From an uncultured Gemmatimonadaceae bacterium (GTDB taxonomy: Bacteria; Gemmatimonadota; Gemmatimonadetes; Gemmatimonadales; Gemmatimonadaceae): a stretch of 64,000 nucleotides of DNA. The stretch covers positions 704,001 to 768,000 of the forward strand of contig CAWBOC010000009.1 of NCBI GenBank assembly GCA_963790305.1. Direction: 5' to 3'. Shown piece after piece: positions 1,789 to 8,027 of the stretch (position 1 is the stretch's first letter; every line of letters begins with the position of its first letter). Position numbers and translations under genes: made by a program. Under the pieces are notes generated by a model. The model was not told the DNA's origin, did not search any database, and was given only the letters and a program-made list of their open reading frames with translations.

Positions 1789-1924
1789 GCATAACTACCC
1801 ACTGCACCTGACGAGCGCGATGTCCAAGGACGCCATCACATTTACGGCCTGTCGCGCTCGGCGCGACCGCGAGCACCCGTCTCCTGCGGAGCCGGACGCT
1901 CGCAGGTGAATGGGAGCGTTCTGC
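1789..1924 (+). repeat. attC site, subfamily B
   Basis: GCATAAC...GCACCTGACGAGCG...CGCTCGCAGGTGAA...GTTCTGC. Confidence 0.88.
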
Positions 1925-2340
1925 GGAACCGGGCCACACGGTTACCTTTATTGTCCATGCGACGCTTGACGGTAGGCGCAACACTCGCCCTCACTGCGTG
2001 CGCCACCCCCTTGCCCCCGAGCCACGCGGACACCAACCCCGTGGAGACGCGCCTCGCCCGACCGGCTCCTATCCAGCGCGCTCAGCTCACCTCCCGCAAC
2101 CGCAGCTCAACCCTACGGGCAGCCCTTTTTTGCTTGTCGTTCGCCCCTGCTGGACGCCCCTGCAACTCCAGTTGACCGACAATAGGCCTGATGACGTTAG
2201 GCTCTTCGTCGTTCGGCTCGCACCAACCGCGATCACTCCTTCTCATCATGGGCCGCTCACGCGATCGAACATGAAAAACTCTGAAAGCGTATCTCGTTTC
2301 GGGCGTCGCTGTGGGATGAGCGTCGTCGCCATCTCTATGC

Positions 2341-2691
2341 TTGGCGGCTATCTCATGCGGCCCTGGCCCACCTTCTCCTACGCTCTGTTCATTCCCGATG
2401 CACGTACGGACCACGCCGGGAACGGAACCGAAGTTCGATTGGGATGCGTGCGAAATGACCGTGCTTTTCGTCACCGTGGAAGGTTCCTCACCCCGTGAGT
2501 TTATGTGGTGGATCGAGACGACAGAAGGCGCTGAGCTGAGGTCGGGCGTCGTGTACGGGCATCCGCCCGAAGGGGCTGTGGAAGTGATCGCGCCTCGCAG
2601 CCTCGTTCGCGGCGAGACGTACGCTGTGCACGTCATGCATCAACCCGGCAGCGGGCGACAGGAGATTGGCGGCGGGGTATTCGGTTACTGA
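2341..2691 (+). CDS. Hypothetical (lipoprotein-like) cassette protein; start uncertain
   Basis: Protein-like composition in the C-terminal part; N-terminus may be frameshifted. Confidence 0.45.
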   Translation: MAAISCGPGPPSPTLCSFPMHVRTTPGTEPKFDWDACEMTVLFVTVEGSSPREFMWWIETTEGAELRSGVVYGHPPEGAVEVIAPRSLVRGETYAVHVMHQPGSGRQEIGGGVFGY

Positions 2692-3093
2692 CCGCGGCAT
2701 TGAGAGCGCAGCACCAGTTCTCTCTGCGTTAATACGCGGGGCGTGGGTTCGAGTCCCATCTTGGGAGTCATTGCACCGGAGTCTCCGACCCGCCGACGAG
2801 CACGCGCTCGAGGACCTTCTCGCGAGCAGCCGCGAGCACGAACATCACTAGCGCGTCCCCAGCACCGCGAACAACCTGATCGGACTCGTGTGGTTGGGTT
2901 CGGGTCGAATTGAGCGGGCGGAATGGAATGCTACTTTTTTTGTTATTCCATCGCTGTACGCAGCGTTAGCCGGCGCAATACTTTGGTACGCGGCACATAC
3001 ATCATTGGTGCATTGCCGCTTACGGTGGGGTGTTCCATAGTGAGGACAGCGGCCTACGCTTCGTGTGCCGCGAAAACTTGCTGCAGAATAGGC

Positions 3094-3721
3094 GTTATGC
3101 GGCTACAGGCTATGACTCAAGTCGAACCGGGGCCTACTCAGCTGAGAATACGCATTGCGGGCGTGGAGTGCGCGTGACCTCCTATGTGTGCGAATCGTTT
3201 CTCAATACCGTATGACACACCGTTGCTCTACGGCCGCACGCTTCCTCTTAGCGACGCTGTTGAATGCGGGCCTCCTTCTGGTTCGGAGGCTGGCTGAGTG
3301 CCCGTGGGCGCCCTGGCAACAATGGGTCTTCGGCCTGCCCTATTTCCTCGCATGCTGTTCCTCCTGCCGATCCTGCTCCTCGCGCCTCGGGGTCCGCGCA
3401 CTGCCCGACCCCGTGAGTATCGTCACAGCCAGTGCGCTCTCCTACCTTCTTGCTGGTGCCGTTGACTGTCTACCTGGCGTACGTACTTCTTCGCCAGGGC
3501 CGCCAAGGGTAGCATTCACCGTGGGCGGTCGTAGATGCTGCTTTTGCTTGCCGGCGCACTATCTCTGGGCTGGATTGGCTTCATGTTGTATCACGCCTTC
3601 CTCTCGTTCGCCCGCAAGAAACGTCGCAGCGCTAAGTTAACCTCACCGCACCCTTCGGTGCCTGGAAAGCAGATGCCATGGCGATCACTTGCGGGACAAT
3701 TCACGAAGGCGCCTGCATAAC
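3094..3721 (+). pseudogene. Degraded cassette, probably a fragmented membrane protein gene
   Basis: Orphan R' GTTATGCGGC at 3094 nearly complements GCCTGCATAAC at 3711-3721; hydrophobic ORF pieces in different frames (e.g. 3535-3720). Confidence 0.45.
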
Positions 3722-3850: not shown

Positions 3851-4161
3851 AGACGGCCAGGCATTCAACCGCCAGGAACAGCACGACGACTTAATTGTTG
3901 GCTCCTCGCGCTCTCGTAAGTGCGACGCACCAAGCGCCGCTCGTGGAGCGCGGTGCGAGTTCGCGCACCACGAGGTGTCATTGATTTCGACCGCGATAGC
4001 TCCGCCGGACACGCTGCTGGCGGCACAAGCGGTCGGCCGTTCGGAATTCTGTGCGGCCACGGTGGGACAACTCGTCATGCACGCTCTTGCAGTGCACCGC
4101 CCTGCCGCACATTGTGGAGTCCGCGCTCAGCGCACGTAGCGCCGGTGATTCGGAGTGGGCT
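3845..4161. other. Gene-less cassette
   Basis: Ends GTTATACAG / CTGTATAAC are complementary; no convincing ORF; hairpin at 3940-3974. Confidence 0.7.
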
Positions 4162-4296
4162 GTATAACTAGCTGTTGCAACTGGCAGGCGCGACGTCCAA
4201 GGAAGCCATCACAGTTCGTGTGCTTCAAGCGCAGCAGGAAAGCGCGCTATCGCGCGCTTTTGAGCAAGCCGCCTGCAGTTGAACGCAGCGTTCTGC
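4162..4296 (+). repeat. attC site, subfamily A
   Basis: GTATAAC-TAGCT-GTTGCAACTGGCAGGCG...CGCCTGCAGTTGAAC-GCAGC-GTTCTGC. Confidence 0.92.
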
Positions 4297-4389
4297 CGAC
4301 GCGCGGTCGTCAGTTCCACGCGCTTCTCGCGACCGGCGTTGATGCAGGCCAAGACTCCCCTAACCATTTGGCGTACTCGCGCTCCGGCA

Positions 4390-5000
4390 ATGCCACAATG
4401 TCGTGAGACAGTAAGAAGCCAGCACGTTAGCGCGTCCACCCTGATTCGGGTGGGTCTCACACTGCTGATCGCACTTGCCGTCGCCGGCTGCGAGCAGCGG
4501 CAGGACGCCAGTCGAGCAGCGTCCAGCGGGGATAGTCAACGAACGACGGCCACTCTCCGACTCCCTACCCATTCGACGACTCGAGCCATCGATTGCAGGG
4601 ATCTACCGTTTCAATAGCGGTATTCCCGACAGCACGTTTACCACCGTACGCGACGTAGTTCGTCTGGGAGGACATGTGGCGTCGATTGAGCGCACAACAC
4701 AGGCCGGTTCGGTCGCCTCCGCCTGTCGACTTCCAAAAGGAGATGGCAGTGGTCGCGACCCTGGGCGAGAGACGCACCACCGGCTACGTGATCACTATCG
4801 AGGCCGTGAGCGACCGCGGTGCATACCTCGAGGCTCACATATGGCGTCGCGCGCCCGGACGGGATTGCGGCGTAGGCGGAATGGTCACCGCGCCTGCAGA
4901 CGTTGCCATTGTTCCGCGACGCGAGGTGGAGGTCCGCGTGCTCACGCATGATCGTGTAACGGACTGTAGTAGGCGTCGTGAGCCCGACCTCCGTAACTGA
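4390..5000 (+). pseudogene. PrcB C-terminal-like lipoprotein, split by two frameshifts; start uncertain
   Basis: Lipobox LAVAGC in frame 4279; YRFNSGIPDS in frame 4475; PPPVDFQKEMAVVATLGERRTTGYVITI in frame 4674. Confidence 0.65.
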
Positions 5001-5059
5001 GCGGTCGCCCGCGTGGCGAGTTGATGGCGCGGGTCGGCGACGTGGCCTGGAAGGGCGCG

Positions 5060-5198
5060 GCAGAACTAACCGTAGCACCTGACGAGCGCGAGTGTTAAGG
5101 TAGCCATTGCATTTAACCGCATGTCGCGCTCCGCTCGACACGAGCGCCCGCACGCTTCGCGCGAAGATCGCTCGCAGGTGAACGGTATAGCGTTCTGC
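5060..5198 (+). repeat. attC site, subfamily B
   Basis: GCAGAAC-TAACCGTAGCACCTGACGAGCG...CGCTCGCAGGTGAACGGTATAGC-GTTCTGC. Confidence 0.92.
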
Positions 5199-5451
5199 AG
5201 ACGCGCGGCCGTCTGTTCCACGCGCTTCGCGCAAGCGGCTGATCGAAAGGGCGAGTGGCTTTCTTAATCATTGAGGACTGAAAGCGCCGATCGCCACGAA
5301 GGACGCGTCTTGAGTCCCTTCCTTAGCAAAACGATCGCGATCACGCCGCGGCGGGTGGATGGTCCGAGGACTCGTCCCAGAAAAACACCGGCGAGCAAAC
5401 GCGGCGAACGAGTTGGTGGCGCGGGCCGACGGCGTGGCCAAGAAAGGCGCG
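5193..5451. other. Gene-less cassette, family X copy 1
   Basis: No credible ORF; shares end blocks and an internal motif with 7518-7754. Confidence 0.75.
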
Positions 5452-5591
5452 GCAGAACTGACCGTAGCACCTGACGAGCGCGAGTGTTAAGGTAGCCATC
5501 ACGTTTGAACCCCTTCTCGCGCTGCGCGCGAGGCTGAGCGCCCCGCCCCTTCGGGGCAGACCGCTCGCAGGTGAACGGTATGGCGTTCTGC
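5452..5591 (+). repeat. attC site, subfamily B
   Basis: Near-identical to 7755-7894. Confidence 0.92.
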
Positions 5592-5611
5592 AGCTTCACT
5601 AGCTTTGTCGC

Positions 5612-6043
5612 ATGGACGTTTCGGCCACACTCCAACTAGGCGTCGAGATTCTCACGCCGGTACTCGCGCCCCACGGCTTTCACTTCGAGTTCCGAGAATC
5701 CGACAAGGGGAGCGGGGGGCATTTCGCCTGGGGCCAGTTCGTCCGCGGTGATCGCCGCCTCGAGCTGCACTTCCGGCACGCCCTCGGCTTAGTCACGTAT
5801 CACCTGGGCGACGTCGTTCTCACCCATGAAGACTTTATGCGGGTGGCGCTTGGTGGCGCGCGGGAGAATGCCTATCCCGGATTCTCGAATGACCCGCTCG
5901 ACGGGTTTCGTCACCTCCGACACGATCTCGAGCGCTTTGCTGCCGCCTTCCTCGCAGGCACCGACGCTCAATTCAAGGCGATCGTGGACCAGGCGCGCTT
6001 GCATCCACCCGCGCGCGGCTTGCGGGCGATAGATCGCGCATAA
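5612..6043 (+). CDS. Hypothetical cassette protein
   Basis: Single ORF filling a cassette bounded by 12-bp complementary ends GTTCTGCAGCTT / AAGCTGCAGAAC. Confidence 0.8.
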   Translation: MDVSATLQLGVEILTPVLAPHGFHFEFRESDKGSGGHFAWGQFVRGDRRLELHFRHALGLVTYHLGDVVLTHEDFMRVALGGARENAYPGFSNDPLDGFRHLRHDLERFAAAFLAGTDAQFKAIVDQARLHPPARGLRAIDRA

Positions 6044-6047
6044 AGCT

Positions 6048-6184
6048 GCAGAACTAACGGTTGCAACCGTCAGGCGCGACGGCCAGGGTAGCCATCGCAG
6101 TTCGTGTGCTTGAAGTGCTACGGCAAAGCGCACTATCGTGCGCTTTCAAGAGCGCCGCCTGCAGTTGAACCGCGCGCGTTCTGC
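6048..6184 (+). repeat. attC site, subfamily A
   Basis: GCAGAAC...GTTCTGC; near-identical to 6767-6903. Confidence 0.92.
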
Positions 6185-6265
6185 GGATGCTAGAGTCCGT
6201 CCCGACTTTGAGGTGGCTGGCCGTCGCGCTCCGTGGCATATTCCAGCTTCTCCCGACCCCGTCTC

Positions 6266-6457
6266 ATGGATATCAAGGCCGAAGCACGACGCCTCATCGA
6301 TCAGCTCCCCGACGACGCCACATGGGATGATCTCATGTATGAGATCTACGTCCGCCAGGCCATCAATGCCGGGCTCGCCGACGTCGAGGCCGGCCGCGTC
6401 ATCCCGCACGAGGAAGTCCGCTCCCGCCTCGGCCTCGGGAAGAAGCGCTCGGCGTAG
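6266..6457 (+). CDS. Antitoxin of RelE/ParE-type TA pair
   Basis: IDQLPDDATWDDLMYEIYVRQAINAGLADVEAGRVIPHEEV; abuts the toxin. Confidence 0.85.
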   Translation: MDIKAEARRLIDQLPDDATWDDLMYEIYVRQAINAGLADVEAGRVIPHEEVRSRLGLGKKRSA

Positions 6458-6744
6458 TGCGTGTCCTTTGGTCGGAAGGGGCGCTCCAACACCTCGCGGC
6501 CATCTATCAGTACATCGCGCAAACGTCGCCCGTCTACGCCGAAGGCGTTGTCGACCGCATTTGGCACCGGAGTGGACAACTCGGAGAGTTCCCTGACTCC
6601 GGCCGCGAGGTCCCTGAGTACAAGCGACCAGACATTCGCGAGATCATCCAGGGGTCCTATCGCGTGATCTACCGACGAGGCAGCGACGCGATTCAGGTTC
6701 TCGCCGTCATCCACGGCGCGCGCCGCTTGCCTCCGCTCCGTTGA
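6457..6744 (+). CDS. RelE/ParE family toxin
   Basis: VLWSEGALQHLAAIYQYIA...FPDSGREVPE...IREII-GSYRVIYR...IQVLAVIHGAR. Confidence 0.9.
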   Translation: MRVLWSEGALQHLAAIYQYIAQTSPVYAEGVVDRIWHRSGQLGEFPDSGREVPEYKRPDIREIIQGSYRVIYRRGSDAIQVLAVIHGARRLPPLR

Positions 6745-6766
6745 TGTCGACATCGCCAACGGCACC

Positions 6767-6903
6767 GCAGAACTAACGGTTGCAACTGTCAGGCGCGACT
6801 GTTAGGGTAGCCATCGCAGTTCGTGTGCTTCAAGTGCAACGGCCAAGCGCACTGTCGTGCGCTTTCAAGAGCGCCGCCTGCAGTTGAACCGTGGGCGTTC
6901 TGC
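6767..6903 (+). repeat. attC site, subfamily A
   Basis: GCAGAAC...CGCCTGCAGTTGAAC...GTTCTGC. Confidence 0.92.
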
Positions 6904-6973
6904 GTACACCGAGCCCCGTTCGAAATTGTAGCTTCGTAGCCTCGCGGTTCGTACCCACTGACGCGCTTCGCTT

Positions 6974-7360
6974 ATGCCTCAGGATCGCAAGACCGGTGCA
7001 GCCGGCAATCAGTTCGGCCACGAGAACGCACCGAAGATCGCCGAGGCAATTGGTGCTACTCTCACGCGCGACGGTACTAACGAGGCCATGTGGGAAGGCA
7101 AGCGCGCAGTAATCAAATCCGCTCGAAAAAACACCTCGAGCGTCGGTGTCACCTATTCCATGCTCGACACTCTAGACGTCGTCATCGCGGCCTTTCAGCA
7201 CAGAACCGGCCCTTATGATGTCTACGTTCTTCCCGCTGCCCGATTTGCCGAGCTGGCTGTCGATAGCCGCAGCAGCGGTGCCGCTGGTGGCGTCGGTATC
7301 GTGTCGCGAAAGGCATTTATGGAGGAAGGAAAACGCATTAAGGTAGTGCGAGCCTCCTAG
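6974..7360 (+). CDS. Hypothetical cassette protein
   Basis: Single ORF; cassette ends GTTCTGCGT / ACGCAGAAC are complementary. Confidence 0.75.
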   Translation: MPQDRKTGAAGNQFGHENAPKIAEAIGATLTRDGTNEAMWEGKRAVIKSARKNTSSVGVTYSMLDTLDVVIAAFQHRTGPYDVYVLPAARFAELAVDSRSSGAAGGVGIVSRKAFMEEGKRIKVVRAS

Positions 7361-7388
7361 CTCGACGTTAGGGCTCACCGCGCCTGAC

Positions 7389-7523
7389 GCAGAACTAGCT
7401 GTTGCACCTGTCCGGCGCGATGTTCAAGGAAACCATCACGTTTGATCGCCTTCAAGAGCAACTGCAAAGGCGGGCGTTCGCCCGCCTTTGCAAAGCCGCC
7501 TGCAGGTGAACGCGGCGTTATGC
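7389..7523 (+). repeat. attC site, subfamily A
   Basis: GCAGAAC-TAGCT-GTTGCACCTG...CAGGTGAAC-GCGGC-GTTATGC. Confidence 0.92.
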
Positions 7524-7754
7524 CGACGCGCAGCAGTCACGTCCACGCGCTTCTCGCGGCCGGCATTCGTGAAAAGAACGGCACTTTCTTTTGAACGTCA
7601 CGCTGCTTGAGCTCCGCGCACGACGGCCACGTAGGCTTCGCCATCACGCCGCAGCGGGTGGACTCTTGCAGCTCCCAGCGCGGCAAGACGGTGCAGTTCG
7701 CGTTAGCTAGTCAGCTTGGTGGCGCGCTTCGGCTGCGTGGCCAACAAAGGCGCG
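7518..7754. other. Gene-less cassette, family X copy 2
   Basis: Ends GTTATGCCG / CGGCATAAC; homologous blocks to 5193-5451. Confidence 0.75.
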
Positions 7755-7894
7755 GCATAACCAACCGTAGCACCTGACGAGCGCGAGTGTTAAGGTAGCC
7801 ATCGCGTTTGAACCCCTTCTCGCGCTGTCGCGCGAGACAAGCGCCCTGCCCCTTCGGGGCAGACCGCTCGCAGGTGAACGGTATAGCGTTATGC
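7755..7894 (+). repeat. attC site, subfamily B
   Basis: GCATAAC-CAACCGTAGCACCTGACGAGCG...GTTATGC. Confidence 0.92.
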
Positions 7895-8027
7895 AGCGAC
7901 CGAGGTCATCGTGTCGACCGGCTCGTCGCCCCGCATGATACAAGCTGGAGACAGGCTTAGTGATCGCGATTTCCTGGAGTCAAACCGGCGAGACGGAAGA
8001 CGCGGAGGTGGTTCCGTTACCACGCAA

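Follow-up and report, generated by a model that had tools for sequence, protein, structure and literature searches.

How does a gene come to be joined to the recombination site, attC, that makes it an integron cassette? Cassette formation is still given as an open question in passages of PMC8618304 and PMC8352920, and the chromosomal integron of an uncultured Gemmatimonadaceae bacterium raises the question in a concrete form. We analysed a stretch of 64,000 nucleotides (nt) from the metagenome-assembled genome (MAG) of this organism, hereafter the window (GenBank assembly GCA_963790305.1, contig CAWBOC010000009.1, positions 704,001 to 768,000). It contains three cassettes, A, B and C, which start at window positions 4290, 5192 and 7517 and have common 5' and 3' ends; B and C are gene-less, and A encloses a gene for a PrcB_C lipoprotein. 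What seems new is that one non-coding cassette is seen empty, with a gene, and with a chromosomal gene fragment that is 91% identical to the copy in the host lineage. The source MAG is labelled G000 and its contigs C9 and so on, so that the window is G000:C9:704001-768000; G001 to G125 are related genomes, L0xx are loci and X1 to X4 are public soil runs.

Shared ends of cassettes A, B and C

An earlier note on this DNA had placed the cassette starts at 4291, 5193 and 7518, which is off by no more than one base: core sites (GTTMTRC) begin at 4290, 5192 and 7517, and inverse cores (GCAGAAC or GCATAAC) at 5060, 5452 and 7755. In a three-way alignment of A, B and C, the invariant runs lie in the first ~53 and the last ~50 columns. 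A fourth, gene-less member of the family is found 1.9 kb upstream of the window (G000:C9:702074-702309). The end blocks were compared by local alignment of the 5' 80 nt and the 3' 60 nt, with the 7-base cores omitted. Scores within the family were 14–33 for the 5' block and 21–47 for the 3' block; the remaining 294 pairs of array cassettes had means of 8.6 and 8.0 and maxima of 15 and 18. With 1000 dinucleotide shuffles as the reference, the comparisons of A with the other members gave z = 3.7, 13.7 and 10.6 for the 5' block and z = 16.2, 9.5 and 7.8 for the 3' block. The blocks that the note had seen as common to the three cassettes are thereby upheld, with two marginal overlaps: the lowest 5' score within the family (14) does not reach the highest background score (15), and the weakest 5' comparison of A, that with the copy upstream of the window, has an observed score of 16 against 20 for the best shuffle.

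Related attCs close all three cassettes, again as the note had it. Those of A (5060..5198), B (5452..5591) and C (7755..7894) were delimited on the forward strand with the cores and an attC profile made from nine attC sites of the window, and together with the attC after the upstream copy they belong to one subtype, e.g. CCGTAGCACCTGACGAGCGCGAGTGTTAAGGTAGCC. The attC preceding A (4162..4296, forward strand) was found with the same profile and regular expressions for the cores; its inverse core GTATAAC lies at 4162 and its core GTTCTGC at 4290-4296.

Breakpoint mapping by alignment revealed the composite structure of A, all parts of which lie on the forward strand. The 5' part (4290..4370) corresponds to positions 1–83 of the family profile, which has 267 positions (nhmmer, E 8e-16), and the 3' part (5016..5066) to positions 217–267, ending in the inverse core GCAGAAC (nhmmer, E 7e-12). 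The 3' part is 94% identical to the upstream copy at C9:702256-702308. Between them lies a cargo of 645 nt (4371..5015), which stands where 133 family positions (84–216) were and has no significant match to the family profile (best E > 6, all filters off). PrcB_C is the sole Pfam match in the cargo, with no transposase or reverse transcriptase, and no attC remnant was detected between 4303 and 5048 at E <= 1e-3, although over-decayed remnants could escape the profile.

We aligned contigs of the four public soil runs, which come from three studies, to the region of cassette A. An X4 contig of 775 letters spans 4288-5063, differing by 42 letters and 3 gaps, and one or both of the junctions between family sequence and cargo are crossed in X1, X2 and X3. 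Since contigs from other runs span these junctions, the chimera did not arise in the assembly of the MAG. The loaded cassette A occurs in other samples at ~94% identity, with its gene apparently open. No run contains more than 0.13 of the sampled words, and no RNA run is among those with a match. A further 11 contigs (seven from X4, three from X2 and one from X3) match the 5' and 3' blocks without the cargo, as other members of the family would, with the caveat that such low-likeness joints in metagenome contigs can stem from repeats.

The empty form is a non-coding cassette family

Judged by their sequences, the gene-less forms are a lineage-restricted non-coding cassette family of ~265 bp. 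Cassette B (5192..5458, forward strand, 267 nt) is a full-length member and scores 199.8 bits with a sequence-only family model, R1; cassette C (7517..7761, forward strand, 245 nt) has an internal deletion of ~24 nt. With B as the BLAST query, matches were obtained in seven of 61 related genomes, including full-length copies at 72–76% identity in two congeneric species (twice in G004 and once in G001), and there was no strong match in the 52 genomes of other genera. Model R1 matched six of the nine genomes of the genus at E <= 0.01, three of them strongly and at full length, and gave just three weak matches (21–25 bits) in 100 other genomes of the Gemmatimonadaceae. The weak matches to the model are G004:C81, G005:C46, G008:C187, G031, G062 and G125; that in G031, which belongs to another genus, covers model positions 6–250 (G031:C355:11938-12180, 24.7 bits) and could be a distant relative.

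Metagenome contigs were scanned by exact pattern for the 3' block, and 14 of the 25 loci obtained have attCs and family sequence. Chance matches to the pattern, with neither attC nor family match, made up 1/5, 8/14 and 11/25 loci in three scans and were dropped. The distinct members found in G000, G001, G004 and the metagenome loci number 14, namely 11 of B type (264–268 nt), one of C type (245 nt, the cassette at 7517) and two of D type (236 nt). A 12-row family alignment has a mean column identity of 78%, with conserved islands along its full length and not just at the ends. Variation is almost absent from the first ~45 and the last ~50 bases, and the interior is less conserved. In G000 the family accounts for four of the 25 cassettes of the array (three empty ones and A), and copies can be neighbours, B following directly after A.

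The note's reading of the cassettes at 5192 and 7517 as gene-less is borne out. No protein relatives were found for the 67-codon open frame of B, and 12 family copies, B and C included, have no clear three-base periodicity (variability by codon position 0.20, 0.17 and 0.14 in the best conserved stretch). Insertions and deletions in the 12-row alignment are not multiples of three. A small protein encoded by the empty family was considered and rejected on the lack of relatives and of clear periodicity. RNAalifold predicted 41 pairs for the family, four of them with a compensatory change; most pairs never vary, and covariation is weak. This does not amount to evidence for an RNA, and a structured RNA or hairpin hot spot was considered and set aside. 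No sigma-70-like promoter was found in 4100-8000 by a scan limited to this type.

Several indirect signs suggest that the family is mobilised by the integrase: its multiple copies, its varied array positions, and its first place after an attI-like site. A family cassette is the first after this site in G004:C4 (L002/L027) and G001:C112 (L003/L028). The 5' block directly follows an attI-like site in these two places and in G004:C74, and it follows the last attC in G001:C221 and G006:C69. We considered whether the block might be the native right flank of attI and rejected this, the shared length varying (42 versus 94 positions) with nothing shared beyond it. We read these 5' blocks as truncated family members and not as the source of the family.

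Foreign DNA in a second family member

The metagenome locus L053 contains a 1359-nt cassette between two attCs, the outer parts of which match cassette C. Its first ~135–140 nt correspond to positions 1–~140 of C and its last ~111 nt to positions ~135–245, at 84% and 83% identity by BLAST and at 88% when the outermost 83 and 51 nt are compared. An insert of ~1.1 kb is flanked by this nearly whole C-type sequence. In a phylogenetic tree both flanks group with cassette C (support 0.98), and A is placed elsewhere; C is the nearest relative of both flanks. The insert contains an open reading frame (ORF) of 91 amino acids (aa) without a Pfam family and, on the opposite strand, part of an S9 peptidase gene, an internal piece truncated on both sides. 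This piece corresponds to residues 562–722 of an 817-aa protein encoded at G000:C5:630823-633273 and is 91% identical in nucleotides to G000:C5:631109-631587. BLASTP gave 85% aa identity (160/189), and most mismatches fall in the non-homologous ~28 residues at the start of the alignment. The attC profile has no match on contig C5. The Pfam matches in the cargo are Peptidase_S9 and BD-FAE only, without a transposase or reverse transcriptase, and the cassette holds no internal attC remnant at E <= 1e-3, with the same limit that over-decayed remnants could escape the profile. In L053, then, a non-coding cassette harbours chromosomal DNA from the host lineage.

The same flanks are thus found around unrelated contents, namely the PrcB_C gene in A, the patchwork with the S9 piece in L053 and, in a third case, the end of another ORF, rather than around a single gene and its remnants, the outcome that the note had named as refuting its idea. 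The third case is locus L065, in which family positions 202–267 and a related attC lie behind the end of an unrelated ORF and the 5' side is beyond the contig end.

With two loaded forms at hand, the note's alternative, in which the empty cassettes are leftovers of a gene deletion from a loaded ancestor, can be weighed. Decay is certainly seen in these arrays, as the gene of A is frameshifted in G000, a second array on C8 is decayed, and C lacks an internal stretch that B has. The empty interior (positions 84–216), however, is unrelated to either cargo, and three species as well as many metagenome contigs have it conserved throughout; L053 holds a nearly complete empty C-type sequence around its insert, and the two loaded forms differ in both cargo and breakpoints. 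We therefore regard an origin of the empty forms by gene loss as very unlikely.

A second alternative explains the loaded forms by fusion: a gene cassette lay between two family copies, and two deletions removed the intervening attCs together with the adjoining halves of these copies. Fused cassettes that result from attC loss are described (PMC4670013), and family copies are frequent (four of 25 cassettes) and can lie side by side, as A and B do. One-sided chimeras are moreover observed. In G001:C221, G006:C69, L065 and L067, family positions 1–42 adjoin tautomerase, lumazine-binding-like and flavodoxin-like genes of opposite orientation, and in L067 a family member is followed by such a 42-nt 5' remnant. 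Positions 1–94 stand directly after an attI-like site in G004:C74, followed by ORFs with no attC in 7 kb, and positions 83–267 lie behind a different start in G004:C83. Fusion nevertheless requires two independent deletions in A and again in L053. The left and right breakpoints of L053 are at most ~5 positions apart in an element of 245 nt, which is expected of one insertion and unlikely for two deletions, and its flanks are equidistant from cassette C (88% each). Neither cargo contains an attC remnant by profile search, and that of L053 is an internal gene fragment and not a cassette. Fusion by deletions is, on balance, an unlikely origin of the two loaded forms, albeit one with clear precedent at this family.

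Among these chimeras, the truncated 5' remnants at G001:C221, G006:C69 and G004:C74 correspond to loci L010, L004 and L014/L029, respectively, and in G001 and G006 ordinary genes follow. G006 has an apparently single-cassette array. A shorter attC type (~100 nt, core GTTAGGC) occurs in G004:C83 (L011), ~100 nt before the truncated family member.

Paired termini of the family

The start of each cassette complements its own inverse core (GTTATGCCG / CGGCATAAC in C and GTTCTGCC / GGCAGAAC in A). The alignment fold contains 12 such pairs with one compensatory change, and an excised circle would restore the attC. In this circle the conserved family termini adjoin the attC and, in predicted folds, partly pair together.

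The blocks might accordingly belong, as outer arms, to a recombination site of unusual length and be shared by gene conversion or selection, without common descent of the cassette bodies. The pairing of the first 13 with the last 12 bases, the compensatory change in C (GTTATGC / GCATAAC), and DNA folds of the circular junction that pair more of the 5' block with the 3' block in most of 10 members are consistent with such a site. On the other hand, three members (two of D type and L061) have a changed 5' block and no compensating change in the 3' block, the family body is found with different attC subtypes, and array cassettes 6, 14 and 15 have similar attCs without the blocks. The shared length varies between forms (42, 83, 94 or ~140 positions on the left; from ~135, 202 or 217 onwards on the right), which implies no fixed site boundary, and the empty members are homologous throughout, beyond their ends. 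We consider this explanation improbable, and retain common descent of the family cassettes.

The cargo gene of cassette A

The note had described a PrcB-like lipoprotein gene in place of the middle of A. The domain and the replacement stand; the gene in G000 is not one frame, having two frameshifts. A tblastn comparison with the intact homologue P0004 located it on the forward strand in three frames (4411-4545, 4544-4672 and 4665-4982, with a stop at 5000). The third piece matches PF14343 (PrcB_C) with 30.6 bits at a cut-off of 24, and a lipobox, LAVAGC, read by eye, gives the gene a lipoprotein-like signal. The gene fills the cargo almost completely, leaving 27 nt ahead of the possible ATG and 16 nt behind the stop. 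Relative to the intact 196-aa homologue of G005, the frameshifts consist of one gap of 2 nt and one extra base. In the soil contigs one base is missing at 4555 in both covering runs (X3 and X4) and one at 4663 in all three (X2, X3 and X4); by arithmetic, these missing bases place all three pieces in a single frame. The G000 copy would then be either a recent pseudogene or the product of two assembly errors.

Homologues of PrcB_C at ~30–39% identity occur in 46 of 251 Gemmatimonadaceae genomes. Among the 20 best loci, attCs of the same type lie within 1.5 kb at G000's own only. The closest relative of the cargo gene, at G005:C84:16452-17039 (76% nt identity over 504 nt, window 4466-4969), has an intact frame and matches PF14343 with 34.7 bits. 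Family sequence is absent from its surroundings. An upstream gene, whose stop overlaps its start, has a G000 counterpart between attC remnants on C8, and four partial attCs occur on the same strand 4–11 kb from the G005 gene. Of the homologues with which the note had proposed to compare the captured gene, the closest one thus lies among partial attCs.

Probable direction and proposed mechanism of loading

Most likely the empty form came first and gave rise to the loaded ones. This direction is an inference: the breakpoints differ between the loaded forms, and each form belongs to a different sub-lineage of the empty family, which favours a transition from empty to loaded over gene loss. The two forms also retain different, nested amounts of the empty interior.

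As to the mechanism, the family cassettes were probably moved by the integrase, A having arisen by interior replacement and L053 by an independent insertion; we hold this account with moderate confidence. The integrase would move and multiply the family cassettes like others. A break in the dispensable interior may then have brought in foreign DNA by illegitimate recombination or end-joining, and a composite that retained the termini and the attC would have remained a cassette, mobilised through its attC. In A, 133 interior positions would have been replaced by the 645 nt with their tightly trimmed PrcB_C gene, and for A such a single replacement is simpler than two deletions fusing three cassettes. 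In L053, ~1.1 kb of patchwork chromosomal DNA would have been inserted into a member of the 7517 type, independently of A; the near-coincidence of the breakpoints and the equal divergence of the flanks argue for one insertion. G000 has two Ku genes (PF02735; C5:495530-496069 and C2:145869-146366, 166 bits each), which makes end-joining plausible.

Several observations weigh against this account. Two-sided loaded forms number two (A and L053), with A alone in the nine genomes of the genus, and L053 and L065 are one metagenome contig each. The one-sided chimeras imply that deletion-fusion happens at family cassettes, and two such events could make a two-sided form. No target duplication or clear microhomology was established at the junctions, the donor sequences not being in hand. 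The cargo of A may already have been cassette DNA and not a de novo capture, as its closest relative lies among attC remnants of a sister species. Finally, the interior is conserved and hence not neutral filler. Its conservation across species also contradicts the note's term 'blank' for the scaffold. Searches for a function of the interior gave no Rfam match above threshold (two sub-threshold matches both lie in attCs), and the folding energy of B equals that of shuffles (z 0.21 for DNA, 0.26 and -0.25 for RNA of the plus and minus strands).

The note's further proposal, that gene-less cassettes act as an acceptor chassis for genes, is sustained in so far as the same termini occur empty and around unrelated contents, and is weakened by the possible prior cassette origin of the A cargo and by the mere two two-sided forms. 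In its general form, the family would be a recurrent attC donor, the dispensable interior of which takes up stray DNA such as chromosomal fragments and genes from decaying arrays. We put this forward as a tentative and rather doubtful generalisation. If it is true, DNA landing in the interior would at once be a cassette that the integrase can mobilise, providing a general, intron-independent route of cassette genesis, and selection would later retain rare useful captures, such as the tightly trimmed PrcB_C gene that is apparently intact in several soils.

The surrounding integron

The G000 assembly comprises 4.31 Mb in 13 contigs, with 66% G+C. Run over this genome, the attC profile gave 41 matches: 32 on C9, eight, mostly partial, on C8, and one on C7. 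The short attC in G004:C83 was missed by the profile, so the census may undercount sites. On C9, 26 full attCs (inverse core and core GTTMTRC) bound 25 cassettes (C9:696726-716531). The integron integrase gene intI lies upstream of the array (C9:694912-695919; TIGR02249, 449 bits at a cut-off of 265), and its product shares 85% identity with G004 IntI. An attI-like site is predicted at C9:696126, 3' of intI, and is conserved beside intI in G004 and G006. The array with its attCs, intI and putative attI is a chromosomal integron of this Gemmatimonadaceae MAG. In G000, as in G004:C4 and G006:C69, intI has the same orientation as the cassettes, an arrangement that we take to resemble the 'inverted integrase' group of integrons.

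The attI region (~200 nt, ending GCAGAATAGGCGTT|ATGC) has two more copies, at window 2880-3096 and G000:C7:273859-274075, with 82% mean column identity with the copy beside intI. The former sits within the array, in a 1.8-kb 'cassette' (1918-3721), and the latter is followed by one cassette and an attC; tblastn found no intI beside either. The second array (G000:C8:5979-28020) is decayed, with mostly partial attCs, one of them shrunk to ~40 nt (C8:27985-28025), and no intI nearby. The window cassette at 6178-6773 contains two small ORFs of 74 and 95 aa (6233-6744) with abutting stop and start, which by eye may be an antitoxin-toxin pair of the RelE/ParE kind.

Comparison with known systems

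The cargo of A and its G005 homologue share their domain with PrcB_C proteins (PF14343); here the gene is cassette-borne and, in G000, frameshifted twice. The one-sided chimeras at G004:C83, L065 and G001:C221 fit the fused cassettes that arise by partial or total loss of an attC, as described in PMC4670013. A and L053 differ from such fusions, since their cargo is flanked by the family on either side and contains no attC remnant. Another attempt to explain how a gene is joined to an attC is the group IIC-attC intron model outlined in PMC3001079. In contrast to that model, Pfam revealed no reverse transcriptase or intron in or beside the cargo of A or L053, and the DNA lies in the interior of the cassette and not in its attC. 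Among the papers found in full-text searches on cassette genesis, non-coding cassettes and cassette formation with group IIC introns, no title or abstract opening describes loaded non-coding cassettes, which is not proof that they are unpublished. The so far speculative idea that an existing cassette supplies the attC for DNA dropped into it becomes one that can be counted in metagenomes and tested at the bench with the present integrase and cassettes, and its interest for integron biology is real, though the cases are few.

Conserved non-coding cassettes are known, and unexplained, from the chromosomal integrons of Vibrio, according to passages of PMC1382264. These have no ORF or protein match, form several paralogues per array, and have full-length homologues in related species and none outside the lineage; the authors proposed that they are selfish elements or have an integron function (promoters, RNAs). 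The Gemmatimonadaceae family differs from them, as far as those passages go, in that its members also occur with foreign DNA inside, of which the passages make no mention, and in its phylum, Gemmatimonadota, its longer attCs (~135–140 nt), and an intI that runs in the same direction as the cassettes. It resembles the Vibrio families described there in lacking ORF relatives, in being paralogous within the array and full-length across species, and in its restriction to one lineage in the genomes searched.

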